Shown here one piece after another: positions 13-59,949 of a stretch of DNA of 64,000 nt (its first letter is position 1; every line of letters starts with the position of its first letter). The notes below the pieces were generated by a model that was given only the letters and a program-made list of their open reading frames with translations, was not told where the DNA came from and did not search any database. The position numbers were made by a program, and so were the translations under genes. This stretch comes from Escherichia virus TH22, in sequence record MT446396.1; one strand, given 5' to 3'.

Positions 13-477
13 ATGATTGTTAACTATATTAAGGGCGATATTGTCGCCCTTTTTCTCGAAGGAAACATCATAGCTCATGGCTGTAACTGCTTCCATACAA
101 TGGGTTCAGGCGTTGCTGGCCAACTGGCAAAGGCTTACCCAAAAATTTTAGAAATGGATAAGACAACAACTGAATACGGTTCCCGAGAAAAACTCGGTGA
201 TATGTCTATTGTTTTTAAACATAAGCCAACTGGATTTGGTATGTGCTATAACCTTTATACCCAGTATGAACCGGGTCCAAATCTGGATTATGGCGCTTTA
301 GTAAATTGTATGATAGAATTAAATCTACAAGCAGAAACCCTTTTGTTTAAACCGGTAATTTATATTCCCAGGATTGGCTGTGGTATTGCAGGTGGTGATT
401 GGGATAAGGTTTCCCGGTTAATTGATATGTTTACTCCTGATATTGATTTGATAGTGGTGGATTATGAGTCAAACTAG
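13..477 (+). CDS. macro domain (ADP-ribose binding/hydrolase-like) protein
   Basis: 154-aa ORF; Gly-rich loops HGCNCFHTMGSGVAGQL and RIGCGIAGGDW resemble macro-domain ADP-ribose binding motifs. Confidence 0.65.
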   Translation: MIVNYIKGDIVALFLEGNIIAHGCNCFHTMGSGVAGQLAKAYPKILEMDKTTTEYGSREKLGDMSIVFKHKPTGFGMCYNLYTQYEPGPNLDYGALVNCMIELNLQAETLLFKPVIYIPRIGCGIAGGDWDKVSRLIDMFTPDIDLIVVDYESN

Positions 478-4325: not shown

Positions 4326-4778
4326 ATGATTATTAATGAAAACGCCTGGCACGTTAAATTACACGACCGTTTTTATGGCCATTATTCTCGCCCACACTCT
4401 TTGTGTGCTTACTTCTGGAAAATTGTATGGGTCTGCTTTATTTGTTCTGTGCTTGCAGGTAGTACAATCTTCGCCTTAACTGTTGCAGGTGCTGGTGTAT
4501 TGGAGCAGTTCTTTGTATTAAGTACTCCTGTTGGTTTAGGGTTAGGGTTTATTTTAGGACTAGCTACAATGGCTCTTATTTTGGCGGTAGCATTTGGTTT
4601 AATATATGGTCTAATGAATTTATGGGCCTGGTATGATTTACGTAAAGAAGAAAAAGAATGGGAACGAATTAAAGCCAAACGCGAAGGAAAGGAAATTAAA
4701 GAAAACGTTTTCATTCAATATATCAAAGCTCGTAAATCTAAGATGTGTCCGGTAATCCATTTTGAGGCGAAGAAATGA
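4326..4778 (+). CDS. hypothetical integral membrane protein
   Basis: 150 aa; 2-3 hydrophobic helices then charged KEEKEWERIKAKREGKE tail; stop overlaps next start (ATGA). Confidence 0.45.
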   Translation: MIINENAWHVKLHDRFYGHYSRPHSLCAYFWKIVWVCFICSVLAGSTIFALTVAGAGVLEQFFVLSTPVGLGLGFILGLATMALILAVAFGLIYGLMNLWAWYDLRKEEKEWERIKAKREGKEIKENVFIQYIKARKSKMCPVIHFEAKK

Positions 4779-5785
4779 GAACAGTTATGAAGGGATATTT
4801 TGGGTCCCATCTTTATGGAACAAGTACTCCGGAATCTGATGTCGATTTTAAGGAAATCTTTGTTCCACATCCACGTGATATTCTGTTAGGTACGGCAATG
4901 AATCATACAAACTTGAACACGAATAACACGGCATCCAAAAACACTAAAGACGATGTTGACCACGAGCTTTATAGCCTGAAATATTTCTTTAAACTGGCGG
5001 CTGAAGGTGAAACTGTTGCTCTGGACATGATTCACACTCCGGCTAACCTGGTAGTCAAATCCGATTTACCAGATGTATGGAAGTTTATCCAAGACAACCG
5101 TTCACGGTTCTATACGACCAACATGAAAGCATATTTGGGGTACGTCCGTAAGCAAGCTTCAAAATATGGTGTTAAAGGTTCTAGACTGGCTGCTTTACGT
5201 GGTGTACTGGCAATTGTTAACCAGATTCCTGAACAGTGGGTTGACTACCAAGAAGATGGTTCGACTAAACAACGTCGCACTAAAGTTGAAGATATTAAGC
5301 ATCGTCTCCCAGAGAATGAATTCTGTGAATGGGTATTCCATAACCATGAGAAAACCGGTCCTCAAACGTTTTATACTGTTCTCGGTCGCAAATACCAAAC
5401 TACTTTGTCATTAATCGAGCTTAAGCAATCTCTGAATAAACTTGATGCCGAATATGGTGAACGCGCTCGTAAGGCCGAAGCTAACGAAGGTATTGACTGG
5501 AAAGCTCTGAGCCACGCTTATCGTGCTGGATATCAGTTGAAGGAAATTTATATGACCGGTGACCTTCAATATCCTTTACGAACAGCCCCATTTATCCTTG
5601 AAATCAAACAAGGGCTACATGCTTTTAAAGATGTACAAGCTGAACTTGAAGCAATCGTCGATGAAGTCGAAACCAATGCCATCTGGGCGGCCAAGAACGG
5701 CATGCCCGATAAGGTAGACATGAAGTTCTGGGACAAGTTTGTTGAAGAGGTATATCTTGACAACCACAATTCCTATTATCGTTAA
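4775..5785 (+). CDS. Pol-beta superfamily nucleotidyltransferase (family unresolved)
   Basis: 336 aa; N-terminal GSHLYGTSTPESDVDF (GS...SDxD) nucleotidyltransferase signature, further Asp in VALDMIH; long helical C-terminal region. Confidence 0.6.
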   Translation: MRTVMKGYFGSHLYGTSTPESDVDFKEIFVPHPRDILLGTAMNHTNLNTNNTASKNTKDDVDHELYSLKYFFKLAAEGETVALDMIHTPANLVVKSDLPDVWKFIQDNRSRFYTTNMKAYLGYVRKQASKYGVKGSRLAALRGVLAIVNQIPEQWVDYQEDGSTKQRRTKVEDIKHRLPENEFCEWVFHNHEKTGPQTFYTVLGRKYQTTLSLIELKQSLNKLDAEYGERARKAEANEGIDWKALSHAYRAGYQLKEIYMTGDLQYPLRTAPFILEIKQGLHAFKDVQAELEAIVDEVETNAIWAAKNGMPDKVDMKFWDKFVEEVYLDNHNSYYR

Positions 5786-5980
5786 TGAAGAAATGAAGGT
5801 CTTCTTATCATATGGAAGACCCAATAAAGGTCGGCGCTGGTATCTCGAAGCAGTCTGTCGGAAAACTGGCAGACGAATCAACATTAAGTACACGTGTAAA
5901 CCAACTTCCAAACAAACCAGGCGTTTTGTTAACTGGGCTATCAATATTATAAGATTCCATAATTTTTGGAGTGCAATCTA

Positions 5981-6004
5981 AGGACCCTTCGGGGTCCTTT
6001 TTTA
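5981..6004 (+). terminator. intrinsic terminator
   Basis: GGACCCTTCGGGGTCC hairpin + T-run. Confidence 0.7.
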
Positions 6005-6084
6005 TTTTAAAAAGTAGTGTACAACAAGATGGTCATGAGGCATAATGATTCCATACTGAGTTACCAAATAAACTGGAGAATAAA
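6005..6084 (+). promoter_or_regulatory. early promoter with conserved leader (family B: CCATACTGAGTTACCAAA)
   Basis: AGTAGTGTACA, CATAAT -10, conserved leader, GGAGAATAAAATG. Confidence 0.55.
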
Positions 6085-6291
6085 ATGTTAGAATTAATCA
6101 AAGCTGCTGGTGAAAAAGGTCTGATGGTTAACACTCGTGACCCTGAACAACGTCAAGCATTTGGTGAGTTAAAAGCCAAAGGTCTGGTTAAAGCATCCCT
6201 TGGTATTGGTAATGCTTTGCGTGTGACTTTGACCCCTGCAGGTAAAGCAATGTTCTTCCCTAAACCATTACCAAAACGTCGTCGCAAGTGA
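6085..6291 (+). CDS. hypothetical basic-tailed protein
   Basis: 68-aa ORF after promoter cassette. Confidence 0.35.
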   Translation: MLELIKAAGEKGLMVNTRDPEQRQAFGELKAKGLVKASLGIGNALRVTLTPAGKAMFFPKPLPKRRRK

Positions 6292-6602: not shown

Positions 6603-6670
6603 GTGTACACAAGTATGGGAGCGTGGCATAATGTTCCTATACTGAGTTACCAAACAAACGGGAGAATAAA
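6603..6670 (+). promoter_or_regulatory. early promoter with family-B leader
   Basis: GTGTACA, CATAAT, CTATACTGAGTTACCAAA, GGAGAATAAAATG. Confidence 0.55.
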
Positions 6671-7195
6671 ATGGAAGCCAAATCAATCTTTAATCTGATT
6701 AATTACAATAATGGTAATTTTAAATCAGAAGCACAAAGCAAGTTCTTTAATGATGTTGCTTGTGCAGGTGAGATTACAGTATCAGGTGGTCAAACTTATA
6801 AAAACGCCTGGAACTGGATTGTGACTGTTGATTCAGTTGGTATTGTTGATGTGTATAAAAACACTAACAAAAACCGCTCTTTGTTCTGGTCAAGAGAGAC
6901 TAATGCTGAGTATCAAGCGGCAAGAGCAAAGAAAAATATGCCAACTGAATCTGATATCCAAAACATCAAATCAGATATCCAATATTATGATGGTCTGATT
7001 GCTGAACAACAAGCAGTGCTTGATAAGTTCAATGAAATCAAAGCATGTAAAGAGATTCCTGAATTCATGCGGGAATCAGTTAATGAACAATACAATCTCA
7101 CTTCAGAGCGTATTGAAACCTATACCAAACAAAGAGCAGAGCGCCAGGTACTCCTTCAGAAGTTTGAAGAGCGTTTAAAGACGGTTCTCGCATAA
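6671..7195 (+). CDS. hypothetical protein with C-terminal coiled coil
   Basis: 174-aa ORF. Confidence 0.4.
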   Translation: MEAKSIFNLINYNNGNFKSEAQSKFFNDVACAGEITVSGGQTYKNAWNWIVTVDSVGIVDVYKNTNKNRSLFWSRETNAEYQAARAKKNMPTESDIQNIKSDIQYYDGLIAEQQAVLDKFNEIKACKEIPEFMRESVNEQYNLTSERIETYTKQRAERQVLLQKFEERLKTVLA

Positions 7196-7204
7196 ACGCT
7201 TTAT

Positions 7205-7258
7205 ACCAAGGATGGTATAATGGTTCTGACCTTTGATTAATCTATTGAGGAAATTATT
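7205..7258 (+). promoter_or_regulatory. early promoter (CCAAGGATGGTATAATGG type)
   Basis: TATAAT at 7216-7221 preceded by CCAAGGATGG; same motif recurs at 9222. Confidence 0.45.
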
Positions 7259-8107
7259 ATGTCACAAGCAATTAATGAAATTCGTTCTGAAGTTAAAAAA
7301 GTTGTTAAATTTAACAGTATTCCAAGCACTAAAGATGTGGTTTTAAATGTTCTATATATGATGTGGAATAAGTTCAATGTTTGTACTAATTCTGCTGAAT
7401 TCACTAAAATCTTTAATAAAACAACGGGCTTGCTTACATTAGAAGACCGAGTCATGAAATCTCTTCAACGTTCAGGTATGTTGTCTCGTGCTAATGTCAA
7501 AATTTTACTTAAAAATTATAATAAAGGTTATGACCTTTATGGTCGTGCGATTAGCACCATGACATTTGATGAAGTGGTCAAAGACCTTCATACTAACCAA
7601 CGACGTTTATTAGCTCTTGGTGCTCGTTTAGCAAGCGGTCAAGATAAACAAATGACCTTTAAAACCAATAATTCTTTAGATTATAAACTATTTAATGTTA
7701 TTAAAGGTCAAAATGAAGGCGAATACAGTATTTCTTCTTTTAGCGGATGTCAATACGAAAACTGGAAATTCCACCTCCGTTTGGCTTTGTCTGAACTCGA
7801 ACATCATGGGGTTCTTACCTTCTATGATGTTAAAACTGGAGGTGTCCAGCGCATTAAACTATGTCAAATTAAAGACCGAGTTGTAGTTGAGAGTCCTTCA
7901 GAGCAAGCTCCTAAAATGGAACCTGTTCCAGTGCGAAGCAATGAAAAATATTCAGAGCAAATTGAGCTTTTCACTAAACAGATTGAAGAACTTAACATCA
8001 CTATCCAGCAGCAAGATGATGAAATTTTCCGTCTGTCAGGACTGAACAATGCAGCGAAAGCCGAACGTCAGAAACTGATGAACGTTATTGAATTGCTTAA
8101 GGATTAA
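7259..8107 (+). CDS. hypothetical protein with C-terminal coiled coil
   Basis: 282-aa ORF. Confidence 0.45.
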   Translation: MSQAINEIRSEVKKVVKFNSIPSTKDVVLNVLYMMWNKFNVCTNSAEFTKIFNKTTGLLTLEDRVMKSLQRSGMLSRANVKILLKNYNKGYDLYGRAISTMTFDEVVKDLHTNQRRLLALGARLASGQDKQMTFKTNNSLDYKLFNVIKGQNEGEYSISSFSGCQYENWKFHLRLALSELEHHGVLTFYDVKTGGVQRIKLCQIKDRVVVESPSEQAPKMEPVPVRSNEKYSEQIELFTKQIEELNITIQQQDDEIFRLSGLNNAAKAERQKLMNVIELLKD

Positions 8108-8108
8108 T

Positions 8109-8324
8109 ATGACCATTTTGATTATCAGTATTATTTTTGGTTATCTTTTGACGGGATTTATTACTACCCTGTTGCTCCACAAGTTTGATAGTCCCTACGA
8201 AAGTGGGGACGAGTATGATGCGGTGTTCACAACATTTTGCTGGCCTATATTCTGGGTAGTCGCTGTTATAATGTGTGTGGCCTGGCCTTTTGCTAAACTC
8301 TATAAAAAATTATTTGGATTATGA
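8109..8324 (+). CDS. hypothetical small membrane protein
   Basis: about 72 aa, two hydrophobic segments; AAGGA SD. Confidence 0.35.
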   Translation: MTILIISIIFGYLLTGFITTLLLHKFDSPYESGDEYDAVFTTFCWPIFWVVAVIMCVAWPFAKLYKKLFGL

Positions 8325-8325
8325 T

Positions 8326-9207
8326 ATGAACATTAAAACACGTAAAGAATATTCTCGATTTGAACAGCGTGAAGGTCGTGCAACCCGTCTTATCGCGATG
8401 AATTCTCTGGTTAACTTTGGTAAAATCAAATCAGGTTCTGCCACCCAGGGGTATGGGCAACGTATTGTAAGAATTAACTCTCTGAATGATTACTGCCGCC
8501 GCCCTGCGTTTTTGTTTGGTGCCACAGTTCGTAAGAGCATTAAGGAAATCCTGGCTGGCGGGCTTCGTATTCGCAAGGCTCCGGTTAACATCAAGAACTA
8601 TAATTTTAACTCTGACAACTTGATTATCAATATCAAGAATGATGGTATACAGATTAAGTTCAAACCAACCACCAAGGGCGACGTTGCTCTTTGTGATACC
8701 TTTAAAGAGGTTATGGGTATCGCGCTGTTTTATATGCGCCATGCTGTTGAAGCATACACGTTTGAAGAAGATACAAATTATATCCACCAAACGGAAAAAT
8801 TCCTTAAAACTATAGTCATTGATATTAAATTAACTAAAGAATATCTTTTGTCTTATGCACCTTATCAAGAGAAAAAGGAACCAGAAATGGCAGAACATAT
8901 CCCTACTGCGACATATAACCCAGCAGTTACAGGTCAGTTTAAATCTTACGACCAGGCTAAAATTTCACCACTGGAAGTTAAAAATATGTATCAATGGAAA
9001 ATCCAGCCAAACAGCTCTCTTGAAATCTTTAACCCACCAATGAAGCCTATTGAGAGCTATCATGCTGATGCTATCCAGGAATCAGTCAACCGCTTAAACG
9101 GTCTGATTGAAGATGAGAAAAAGGGTATTCAGGATGTTCTGAATCGCATCAAGAATATGGAAACACAACGCAATAAATTGCAGGCGGCGATTTTAGCATT
9201 AAAATAA
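8326..9207 (+). CDS. hypothetical protein with C-terminal coiled coil
   Basis: 294 aa from internal ATG of track ORF 8275..9207. Confidence 0.4.
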   Translation: MNIKTRKEYSRFEQREGRATRLIAMNSLVNFGKIKSGSATQGYGQRIVRINSLNDYCRRPAFLFGATVRKSIKEILAGGLRIRKAPVNIKNYNFNSDNLIINIKNDGIQIKFKPTTKGDVALCDTFKEVMGIALFYMRHAVEAYTFEEDTNYIHQTEKFLKTIVIDIKLTKEYLLSYAPYQEKKEPEMAEHIPTATYNPAVTGQFKSYDQAKISPLEVKNMYQWKIQPNSSLEIFNPPMKPIESYHADAIQESVNRLNGLIEDEKKGIQDVLNRIKNMETQRNKLQAAILALK

Positions 9208-9208
9208 T

Positions 9209-9265
9209 GTTTACTTCCAAGGATGGAGGGAGTATAATGAATTCCTACTTTATGAGGAGAACACT
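9209..9265 (+). promoter_or_regulatory. early promoter
   Basis: GTTTAC -35, CCAAGGATGGAGGGAGTATAATG -10. Confidence 0.45.
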
Positions 9266-10255
9266 ATGACACGTAACGAATATATCCAGGCCTTTAACAC
9301 CACTATCGATGCAAAAGTAAAACCATTAATAGGTGAATCGGCTATCCTTTTAATTATCAATTACTGGTTAAATCAGATTGACTCGACGATTGTTGCATCC
9401 GGGCGCTTCAAGAAAGACATTGCGACTATTGCGAGCCGTGCCGGTAAAGATGATATCAAGAAAACTTTTAAAGGTTCCCGAGTCCTGGCATACCTGGTTA
9501 ATAAAGACCTTCTTAATAAGTTTGGCGTTGAATCCAGACATGGTAAAGGTACAATTGGATATCATTGGTTTGGTGATGTTGAAAAATACTACCTTGATAA
9601 ACAAGGCTATACTGTTTCTGAATTCGCAAATTGCTGGGCTCGTGAATTCAGAGATAACAAAATGTCTATCATCAAATCAGCGACAAAATTGATGGGTAGC
9701 GATTATCGCACTATCTCCCATTTGGCTGAGCACATGATAAATGTTAAAGAGTCTGGTGAAAACCAGGTAATTATTACAGTTAAGTATGAATTCTTTACGC
9801 CGGTAGCTACTCCAGAAAATGTCAAAAAGTATCTTGATGCCGCGAGCACGCTTACTTCACAGATGCAGTGCGCCCTTAACTATATGCGCACTGTTGAAAA
9901 AATTAAAGTAGACCCTATCACCAGTACTCATGGTTGGAAAGGTTGGAAAATTGTGGTGACATTACGCGAAGTTAAATGCGCAAAACAACCAACTGATGCA
10001 GAAATTTATAAAAAGAAAAGTGAGGAAATTATGAATGCTCCGCAAGAAACCACCCTTGAAGACCTGATTGATAATCTGAATAATGAGCCAGTGGAACAAA
10101 AAGCGCCTGAAATTGTTGCTCTGGAAATGGCGTATAATAAAGCTCTTGCTGTTAATAAAAAGGCAACTGAAGACTATACCAAAGCCAAGCGACTTTGGGA
10201 AGAATCAACTAATCGTCTGGATAAACTGGAACAGGCTCTGGAGCTACTGAAATGA
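9266..10255 (+). CDS. hypothetical protein with C-terminal coiled coil
   Basis: 329-aa ORF. Confidence 0.45.
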   Translation: MTRNEYIQAFNTTIDAKVKPLIGESAILLIINYWLNQIDSTIVASGRFKKDIATIASRAGKDDIKKTFKGSRVLAYLVNKDLLNKFGVESRHGKGTIGYHWFGDVEKYYLDKQGYTVSEFANCWAREFRDNKMSIIKSATKLMGSDYRTISHLAEHMINVKESGENQVIITVKYEFFTPVATPENVKKYLDAASTLTSQMQCALNYMRTVEKIKVDPITSTHGWKGWKIVVTLREVKCAKQPTDAEIYKKKSEEIMNAPQETTLEDLIDNLNNEPVEQKAPEIVALEMAYNKALAVNKKATEDYTKAKRLWEESTNRLDKLEQALELLK

Positions 10256-10775: not shown

Positions 10776-11039
10776 ATGTTTAAAGTATATGGTTATGATT
10801 CATCTATTCATCGCTGTGTATTCTGCGATAATGCAAAACGTTTTTTGGATGTTAAAAAACAACCTTACGAGTTCATCAACGTTATGCCAGAAAAAGGTGT
10901 GTTTGATGATGAGAAGATTGCCCAACTCCTGGCTGCACTTGGTCGCGAATCTCAAATTGGTTTGACCATGCCGCAAGTATTTGCTCCTGACGGAAGTCAT
11001 ATTGGCGGCTTTGACCAACTGCGAGAATATTTTAAATGA
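10776..11039 (+). CDS. nrdC: thioredoxin/glutaredoxin (NrdC)
   Basis: 87 aa; active site CVFC; closely matches T4 NrdC. Confidence 0.85.
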   Translation: MFKVYGYDSSIHRCVFCDNAKRFLDVKKQPYEFINVMPEKGVFDDEKIAQLLAALGRESQIGLTMPQVFAPDGSHIGGFDQLREYFK

Positions 11040-41922: not shown

Positions 41923-41998
41923 GTGTACATGAAAGATGAACGGTGTATAATAATTTCATACTGAGTTACCAAATCGTCCGTAAGATGAGAAAAATATC
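41923..41998 (+). promoter_or_regulatory. early promoter with family-B leader
   Basis: GTGTACA, TATAAT, TTCATACTGAGTTACCAAA. Confidence 0.5.
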
Positions 41999-55799: not shown

Positions 55800-55864
55800 G
55801 TGTACATCAGTATGGAGTCTATTGTATAATGATTCCATACTGAGTTACCAAACTGGAGAATAAA
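55800..55864 (+). promoter_or_regulatory. early promoter with family-B leader
   Basis: AGTAGTGTACA, TATAAT, TTCCATACTGAGTTACCAAA. Confidence 0.55.
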
Positions 55865-59858: not shown

Positions 59859-59949
59859 TTTTAAAAAGTAGTGTACAATCCCCTTGACCCGCTGCATAAT
59901 AATTCCATACTGAGTTACACAATGAATCACAAAAACTTTGGAGAATAAA
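59859..59949 (+). promoter_or_regulatory. early promoter with family-B leader
   Basis: AGTAGTGTACA, CATAAT, TTCCATACTGAGTTAC. Confidence 0.5.

Follow-up and report, generated by a model that had tools for sequence, protein, structure and literature searches.

The DNA analysed here is a 64,000-nucleotide stretch of Escherichia virus TH22 (MT446396.1; hereafter the window), and the subject of this work is a row of four consecutive open reading frames (ORFs) on its plus strand, bracketed by tk (862-1434) and nrdC (10776-11039), as an earlier note on this DNA had correctly placed them. The first ORF (6671-7195) encodes a protein of 174 amino acids (aa), the second (7259-8107) one of 282 aa, the third (8326-9207) one of 293 aa when read from its ATG or of 310 aa from a GTG at 8275, and the fourth (9266-10255) one of 329 aa; the coordinates, the other three lengths and all four C-terminal sequences are exactly as that note quoted them, and its 294 aa for the third ORF is to be corrected to 293. 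Each ORF matches over its full length one PHROG of unknown function (in gene order 2274, expectation value (E) 4e-99; 2257, E 4e-122; 2351; and 1435, E 7e-138; overall range 1e-99 to 1e-138). Taken as a whole, we consider the following explanation probable: the ORFs are orthologues of the T4 accessory genes nrdC.8, nrdC.6, nrdC.5 and nrdC.4; the last three are tandem paralogues whose products share a three-part architecture, with anti-defence heads carried on a self-associating coiled-coil tail; and NrdC.8 stands apart from them.

The identity of the genes is well defined. Some 4.8 kb around the row is 97% identical in DNA to the Escherichia phages TH55 and UPEC07 and 93% identical to vB_EcoM_VR7 (Gaprivervirus, Tevenvirinae), whose record names the four ORFs nrdC.8, nrdC.6, nrdC.5 and nrdC.4, with nrdC.9 on one side of the row and nrdC.2, nrdC.1 and nrdC on the other. 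The window is that of a VR7-like Gaprivervirus, and the four ORFs are orthologues of the non-essential early T4 genes of the same names. Because the set is complete in 15 of the 15 complete related loci and the ratio of non-synonymous to synonymous substitution (dN/dS) within the genus is low (0.07-0.21, heads and tails alike), they are real genes under purifying selection; this coarse within-genus analysis gave no sign of positive selection. The synteny of nrdC.6 and nrdC.4 is kept across the related loci, and T4 nrdC.3-nrdC.8 can carry insertions in the laboratory host, as can their Bas37 counterparts, and all of these genes are thus non-essential there. Many GenBank and UniProt entries label NrdC.4, NrdC.5, NrdC.6 and NrdC.8 "thioredoxin", and one NrdC.4 is labelled "replication protein". 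We rejected both labels, which find no support from Pfam or from structure: none of the four proteins contains a recognizable thioredoxin or glutaredoxin domain, and the "thioredoxin" labels have apparently been propagated from the gene names. A search of NCBIfam gave no matches.

AlphaFold2 (AF2) models, which cover NrdC.5 and NrdC.6, display a succession of head, linker and tail. In NrdC.6 (predicted local distance difference test (pLDDT) 78.6), a helical N-domain (aa 1-124) and a ββ-α-ββ core (aa 145-202) are followed by a disordered linker (aa 207-228) and by a heptad tail (aa 229-282; 7943-8104, plus strand) that ends in ...RQKLMNVIELLKD and is modelled as two helices (232-260 and 264-281) separated by one kink. 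In NrdC.5, which matches Pfam DUF7235 (PF23882) over residues 1-293 with 388 bits against a cut-off of 30, the head (aa 1-177) comprises a helix (60-82), a ββ unit (99-112), a second helix (120-136) and a second ββ unit (141-169); the disordered linker (aa 178-241; window 8857-9048), 65 residues long in the model, leads into a tail (aa 242-293; 9049-9204, plus strand; ending ...RNKLQAAILALK) that forms a single 51-residue helix (242-292). The heptad tail of NrdC.4 (aa 281-329; 10106-10252, plus strand) begins PEIVALE; it is the best-conserved stretch of its family and contains the majority of the invariant columns, among them E312, E313, R317, E322 and Q323. Near-identical homologues of NrdC.6 and NrdC.4 carry PF26899 and PF26897, respectively.

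The earlier note had proposed that all four proteins end in similar heptad-like C-termini. When the last 14 residues are compared without gaps from a common anchor at the C-terminus, with significance taken from composition shuffles, this holds for three of the four: all six pairs among NrdC.6, NrdC.5, NrdC.4 and the NrdC.3 of T4 score z = 3.6-4.7 (shuffle p ≤0.0008), and NrdC.8 falls at z ~0. The four related tails share an end-anchored motif, K-L-x-x-A-[I/L]-x-x-L-K, which spans the last two heptads and closes each of the ORFs 7259-8107, 8326-9207 and 9266-10255; the positions conserved between paralogues are a, d and g of these heptads and the terminal Lys. The tails resemble one another only modestly (hhalign on the tails alone, E 2e-4 to 0.09): a first pass with smaller alignments placed six of six NrdC.3/4/5/6 pairs in the C-terminal register, deeper alignments kept four of the six, and pairwise BLASTP among the four window proteins gave weak matches (E 6e-4 to >1) that are not decisive either way. 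Averaged over each family, the hydrophobicity along the final 49-50 residues has its strongest period at 3.45-3.50 in NrdC.6, NrdC.5, NrdC.4 and NrdC.3 (p 0.0005-0.02 against shuffles) by a simple measure of our own rather than a trained coiled-coil predictor, and a crude heptad score agrees. A helix of at least four heptads is present in the AF2 models of both NrdC.5 and NrdC.6, kinked in the latter. A heptad-repeat C-terminal helix, within a tail of about 50 residues, is thereby confirmed for NrdC.6, NrdC.5 and NrdC.4. That the resemblance is convergent, reflecting the generic composition of coiled coils or amphipathic helices with no common origin or function, seems to us very improbable. 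Local alignment and hidden Markov model (HMM) statistics on the tails alone are indeed not significant, and coiled coils are notorious for spurious similarity; however, the anchored offset ranks best among about 550 possible offsets, heptad-shifted ones included, in five of the six pairs, a single-copy homologue from phage Merlin ends in the same motif (...RQKLASAVEALNE), and the heads are related too.

NrdC.8 is a separate small protein, unrelated to the tail family, and its inclusion in that family by the earlier note has to be withdrawn. Its hydrophobic period peaks at 4.0 or 3.3, which is not convincing as a heptad, hhalign against every family gives a probability of at most 2.6%, and a search with the tail HMM does not match it. 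We also considered NrdC.8 as a truncated member, given the resemblance of its NE(Q/K)Y...TKQ stretch to the start of the NrdC.6 tail, and rejected this because BLASTP against NrdC.6 with composition correction yields E 0.066 and in view of the same low hhalign probabilities. The protein belongs instead to an orthologous group of its own (PHROG 2274): 745 phage records contain a match, of which only four fall below 60% identity, and the place of the gene, after nrdC.9 and before nrdC.6 or nrdC.7, is conserved. Over its full length the window protein is 69% identical (E 5e-92) to Bas37_0203, a gene product that we traced in KarlGJung (MZ501089) through the supplement of a preprint and the BASEL tables, and which that preprint reports as an inhibitor of Druantia type III (HIDEN-SEQ, 10.1101/2025.11.20.689424). 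By analogy, inhibition of Druantia III is the likely role of the NrdC.8 of the window.

The heads of the remaining proteins had been described in the earlier note as unrelated N-terminal regions, and three kinds of evidence speak against this description. First, hhalign with family alignments makes the homology of the NrdC.4 and NrdC.3 heads clear at the sequence level (98%, E 2e-13) and that of the NrdC.5 and NrdC.4 heads probable (72%, E 3e-5). Second, three motifs (SR-L-LSYLVN-D-L-FG, F-x5-ILKSA-KL-GD-RT and L-x2-AL-x2-M-x2-VE) occur in the same order in the alignments of NrdC.3, NrdC.4, NrdC.5 and NrdC.6. Third, a long helix followed by ββ-α-ββ is common to the NrdC.5 and NrdC.6 models, and Foldseek searches with the two models against BFVD, a collection of predicted viral structures, converge on the same entries: A0A7G3KGN9 (E 4e-9 with NrdC.6; 1e-7 with NrdC.5) and A0A0A0PZG4 (E 3.5e-8; 4.8e-6), both from distant T4-like phages, and an NrdC.6-like protein of Sf25 (E 1e-20; 5.8e-3, the latter with a probability of 0.99). 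Searches of PDB sequences with the three family profiles returned nothing relevant.

Genes of the same kind occur singly in more distant genera. In Merlin (Moonvirus), EnC07 (Karamvirus) and fHyAci03 (Lazarusvirus), the surroundings of nrdC contain a single such gene each; its product of 333-335 aa has the three head motifs given above and a long helix-like C-terminal tail, which in fHyAci03 ends in ...LEETIKILSK. Comparison by hhalign links EnC07_80 to NrdC.6 (P 4.7e-4 over 195 columns), EnC07_80 to Merlin91 (P 1e-3), Merlin91 to NrdC.5 (P 1.7e-3) and Ac3_119 to NrdC.5 (P 1.9e-4), and an unrelated 336-aa control gives P 0.18-0.5. Because of the resulting chain NrdC.6-EnC07-Merlin-NrdC.5-NrdC.4-NrdC.3, together with the structural cross-matches, the proteins are best read as a single superfamily. 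One copy is present in each of the distant genera sampled, three are present in Gaprivervirus and in JS98/Dhakavirus-like loci, and four in Tequatrovirus, where T4 has one more such gene, nrdC.3 (ending ...NAIEVLK); this gene is found only in Tequatrovirus and is absent from the window. These data indicate that NrdC.6, NrdC.5 and NrdC.4, with the NrdC.3 of Tequatrovirus, are strongly diverged tandem paralogues of one ancestral gene, and paralogy of whole genes explains why the first three have a tail in common, in place of the modular arrangement of variable heads on a common tail that had been suggested.

The transcriptional layout of the row differs from one promoter per gene, as the earlier note had it. 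Promoter-like sites do precede three of the genes: an early-type site at 6604-6632 (plus strand; TGTACA, a 17-nucleotide spacer and TGgCATAAT, of the form TG-n-CATAAT) before nrdC.8, an extended -10 element (TGGTATAAT) read directly in the sequence at 7213-7221 (plus strand) in the gap between nrdC.8 and nrdC.6, and a T4-early-type site at 9210-9238 (plus strand; GTTTAC ... TATAAT) before nrdC.4. There is none for nrdC.5. Wedged between nrdC.6 and nrdC.5 is a 71-aa predicted membrane ORF (8109-8324, plus strand; PHROG 7899), which starts 1 nucleotide past the nrdC.6 stop and ends 1 nucleotide before the nrdC.5 ATG; because of these minimal gaps and the lack of an nrdC.5 promoter, nrdC.6, the membrane ORF and nrdC.5 look like one transcription unit. 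The membrane ORF is kept in Gaprivervirus and in JS98/Dhakavirus-like loci, and T4 instead encodes a membrane protein, NrdC.7, between nrdC.8 and nrdC.6. At the other end of the row, the nrdC.4 stop overlaps the nrdC.2 start. The -10 element and leader of the nrdC.8 promoter belong to a repeated sequence, (C/T)ATAAT-G-TTCC-TACTGAGTTACCAAA, of which the window holds five copies (0 expected by chance), all on the plus strand: 6041-6068, 6627-6654 (that of nrdC.8), 41946-41973, 55825-55852 and 59895-59922. The copies before nrdC.8 and before a 68-aa ORF (6085-6291) are alike over about 70 nucleotides, up to the start codon, and the cassette looks like a repeated unit of early promoter and 5' untranslated region. 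Upstream of that 68-aa ORF, a strong stem-loop terminator (AAGGACCCTTCGGGGTCCTT and a T run) is directly followed by a promoter-like site (window 5980-6046). In T4-type phages, repeated promoter/leader cassettes of this kind have been put forward as drivers of gene shuffling.

Across genera, conservation is far higher in the tails than in the heads. The tail of NrdC.4 is 78% identical whereas its head is 40% identical, the corresponding values for NrdC.5 are 76% and 45%, and the NrdC.6 of the window compares with the T4 type at 69% in the tail and 36% in the head. The linkers are the least constrained segments (dN/dS 0.2-0.5); that of NrdC.5 (8857-9048) has dS ~1.0 and dN 0.21 within the genus, whereas the flanking head and tail have dS 0.16-0.21, and such a dS within one genus suggests mosaic alleles. 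With its full-length profile, NrdC.4 finds seven matches among 1.84 billion representative proteins: three near-full-length NrdC.4-type proteins, one NrdC.3 (over the head) and three fragments of 43-95 aa, one of which, of 56 aa, covers tail positions only. No wider family emerged from this search, and NrdC.4 proteins accordingly seem restricted to T4-like phages.

Several individual alleles are worth recording. An NrdC.4 relative on a 1716-bp metagenomic contig (P0062) combines a head that shares only ~30-35% identity with all others and a tail that hardly differs from that of the Gaprivervirus type; either mosaicism or a very strong constraint on the tail may be responsible. The NrdC.6 of reference T4 (NC_000866, 10067-10894) is 275 aa long and ends in ...IEELIFLFNNMMMKFSDYLD, without the canonical tail; other Tequatroviruses have 295-296 aa, the 295-aa form ending in ...KLIKIVDLLKS, and the T4 stock of HIDEN-SEQ has nrdC.6 annotated as an 891-bp gene, which suggests that the reference sequence contains a frameshift or reflects a different strain. 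In the 155-kb phage vB_EcoM_005, NrdC.4 (7941-8912) has lost ~33 residues inside the tail and keeps the last 11 in frame, and NrdC.8 (5606-6031) has an internal deletion and keeps ...ERLKTVLA; these deletions may mean that the extreme C-termini matter, or may be gene decay. The sole NrdC.5 record of Shigella phage SP18 is 170 aa long, about half of the protein.

The uneven conservation of heads and tails could also be accounted for if the heads were unrelated and the tail were a mobile docking or oligomerization cassette spread by domain exchange. The tails being conserved far better than the heads would suit such a history, as would the near-identical tail of P0062 beside its divergent head, and the repeated promoter/leader cassettes of the region could promote recombination. 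We nevertheless regard it as improbable: the heads are homologous (by hhalign, by their Foldseek matches and by the ββ-α-ββ core), the tails are as diverged between paralogues as the heads and alike only in the last two heptads, the NrdC.4 profile search found no longer protein of another kind with a tail like that of NrdC.4, and even the P0062 head still aligns over its whole length.

Tandem paralogy thus being the preferred history, the following scheme would bring the observations together. A single ancestral gene of ~335 aa, still alone upstream of nrdC in Moonvirus, Karamvirus and Lazarusvirus, would have given rise by tandem duplication to NrdC.6, NrdC.5 and NrdC.4 (and to NrdC.3 in Tequatrovirus), and subsequent divergence of the heads would have widened the range of targets. 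Each paralogue consists of a helix-ββ-α-ββ head, a disordered, fast-changing linker and a C-terminal helix of ~50 residues with heptad repeats. The fast-diverging head of each is predicted to bind a different host immune protein, and the conserved tail would form a coiled coil, most likely through self-association, which would make the protein multivalent. A broader proposal, which we put forward as a tentative one, is that NrdC.3-NrdC.6 and the single ~335-aa genes located upstream of nrdC in other Straboviridae constitute an unrecognized anti-defence superfamily with an oligomerizing tail and hypervariable heads directed at distinct immune targets (Dsr1 in the case of NrdC.5); if true, NrdC.4 and NrdC.6 would be predicted inhibitors of defence systems still to be assigned.

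A number of results weigh against this scheme. The hhalign comparison of NrdC.6 with NrdC.4 or NrdC.5 is weak (E 0.02-0.05; 0.026 for NrdC.6 with NrdC.4), and an iterated hmmsearch with default filters over 1016 local ORFs merges only NrdC.4 and NrdC.3. Tail HMMs built with one family left out miss the omitted tail among the 705 ORFs of the window (E 0.8-15), and database-level significance is therefore not claimed for the tail alone. The AF2 model of NrdC.5 is moderately confident (pLDDT 66.6). As to function, there is none known for NrdC.4 or NrdC.6, the Druantia III result on Bas37_0203 has preprint status, and the window NrdC.5 is 28% identical to the NrdC.5 of T4, for which an activity against the defence system Dsr1 is on record (305 columns over head, linker and tail, E 2e-26), so that this activity may not carry over to the window protein. 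Finally, the surface of the tail is itself conserved: within families, identity outside positions a and d is 0.77-0.89, a pattern that docking to a partner could likewise produce. The same superfamily might then use its tail as a helix that docks onto one partner common to all, from the host or from the phage, or the paralogues might form hetero-oligomers with one another. The invariant E312, E313, R317, E322 and Q323 of NrdC.4 are in keeping with either arrangement, as are the co-location of the three genes and the apparent co-transcription of nrdC.6 and nrdC.5. Between paralogues, however, conservation is confined to the core positions and the terminal Lys, there is no known partner, and the tail surface positions differ from one paralogue to another, which argues against one shared docking surface; on balance we think docking or hetero-oligomerization unlikely, and we retain self-association as the working assumption for the tail.

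Two further genes of the surroundings may be mentioned. Just upstream of tk, the window (13-477) encodes a 154-aa Macro-domain protein; for T4-like phages, orphan enzymes resembling antitoxins have been reported to act against DarTG1 (PMC11257639). The nrdC.11 orthologue (window 4775-5785), a conserved accessory gene of the same island, encodes a protein with an RlaP-type nucleotidyltransferase domain (DNA polymerase beta family).

These nrdC genes have long counted among the "dark matter" of the T4 genome. All four genes of the row already figure in the catalogue of T4 accessory genes, and for two of them an anti-defence phenotype of a relative has been published or preprinted; what is new here is the evidence for NrdC.3-NrdC.6 as one superfamily built from head, linker and coiled coil, of which we found no mention in the searchable literature. 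A paralogous family of this kind predicts that NrdC.4, NrdC.6 and NrdC.3 would each neutralize a particular host defence, that specificity would reside in the head, and that the tail would be needed for assembly or potency. These family predictions are anchored by NrdC.5, the one member with a known phenotype, directed against Dsr1. The likely Druantia III role of NrdC.8 would help to predict which hosts therapeutic T4-like phages can infect.

Comparison with characterized systems places the row among counter-defence genes. Dsr1 is a SIR2-type defence system of E. coli ECOR17. Expression of T4 nrdC.5 allows a deletion mutant of the phage to infect cells carrying it once more (Srikant et al., eLife 2022, PMC9391042). 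T4 NrdC.5 is the positional orthologue of ORF 8326-9207, and the tail motif is common to both; it is 47 residues longer than the window protein and ends in ...ALNALN, whereas the latter ends in ...ILALK. The window NrdC.5 compares with the Bas37 NrdC.5 with the same result as with the T4 protein, and phmmer recovers T4-type NrdC.5 proteins as the same family (E ~1e-20). ORFs 9266-10255 and 7259-8107 have their direct orthologues in T4 NrdC.4 and NrdC.6, respectively, and NrdC.3 is a further paralogue. Bas37_0203 of KarlGJung (Bas37) resembles the NrdC.8 of the window over the full length of its sequence and in its position between nrdC.9 and nrdC.7/nrdC.6; it comes from another genus and, as for the window protein, lies outside the coiled-coil-tail family. 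In view of T4 NrdC.5 and of Bas37_0203 (the latter from a preprint), the term "effectors" chosen in the earlier note is plausible. Two other T4-type genes, nrdC.1, which inhibits Septu, and 49.2, which inhibits OLD, are located in the same accessory island around nrdC, are likewise early and non-essential, and show a phenotype only on hosts carrying a defence system, but they encode small unrelated proteins without the head-linker-tail architecture. Because of these four pairs (NrdC.5/Dsr1, Bas37_0203/Druantia III, nrdC.1/Septu and 49.2/OLD) and of the non-essentiality of the genes, counter-defence would, by analogy, be the most likely role of the whole nrdC.8-nrdC.4 row.

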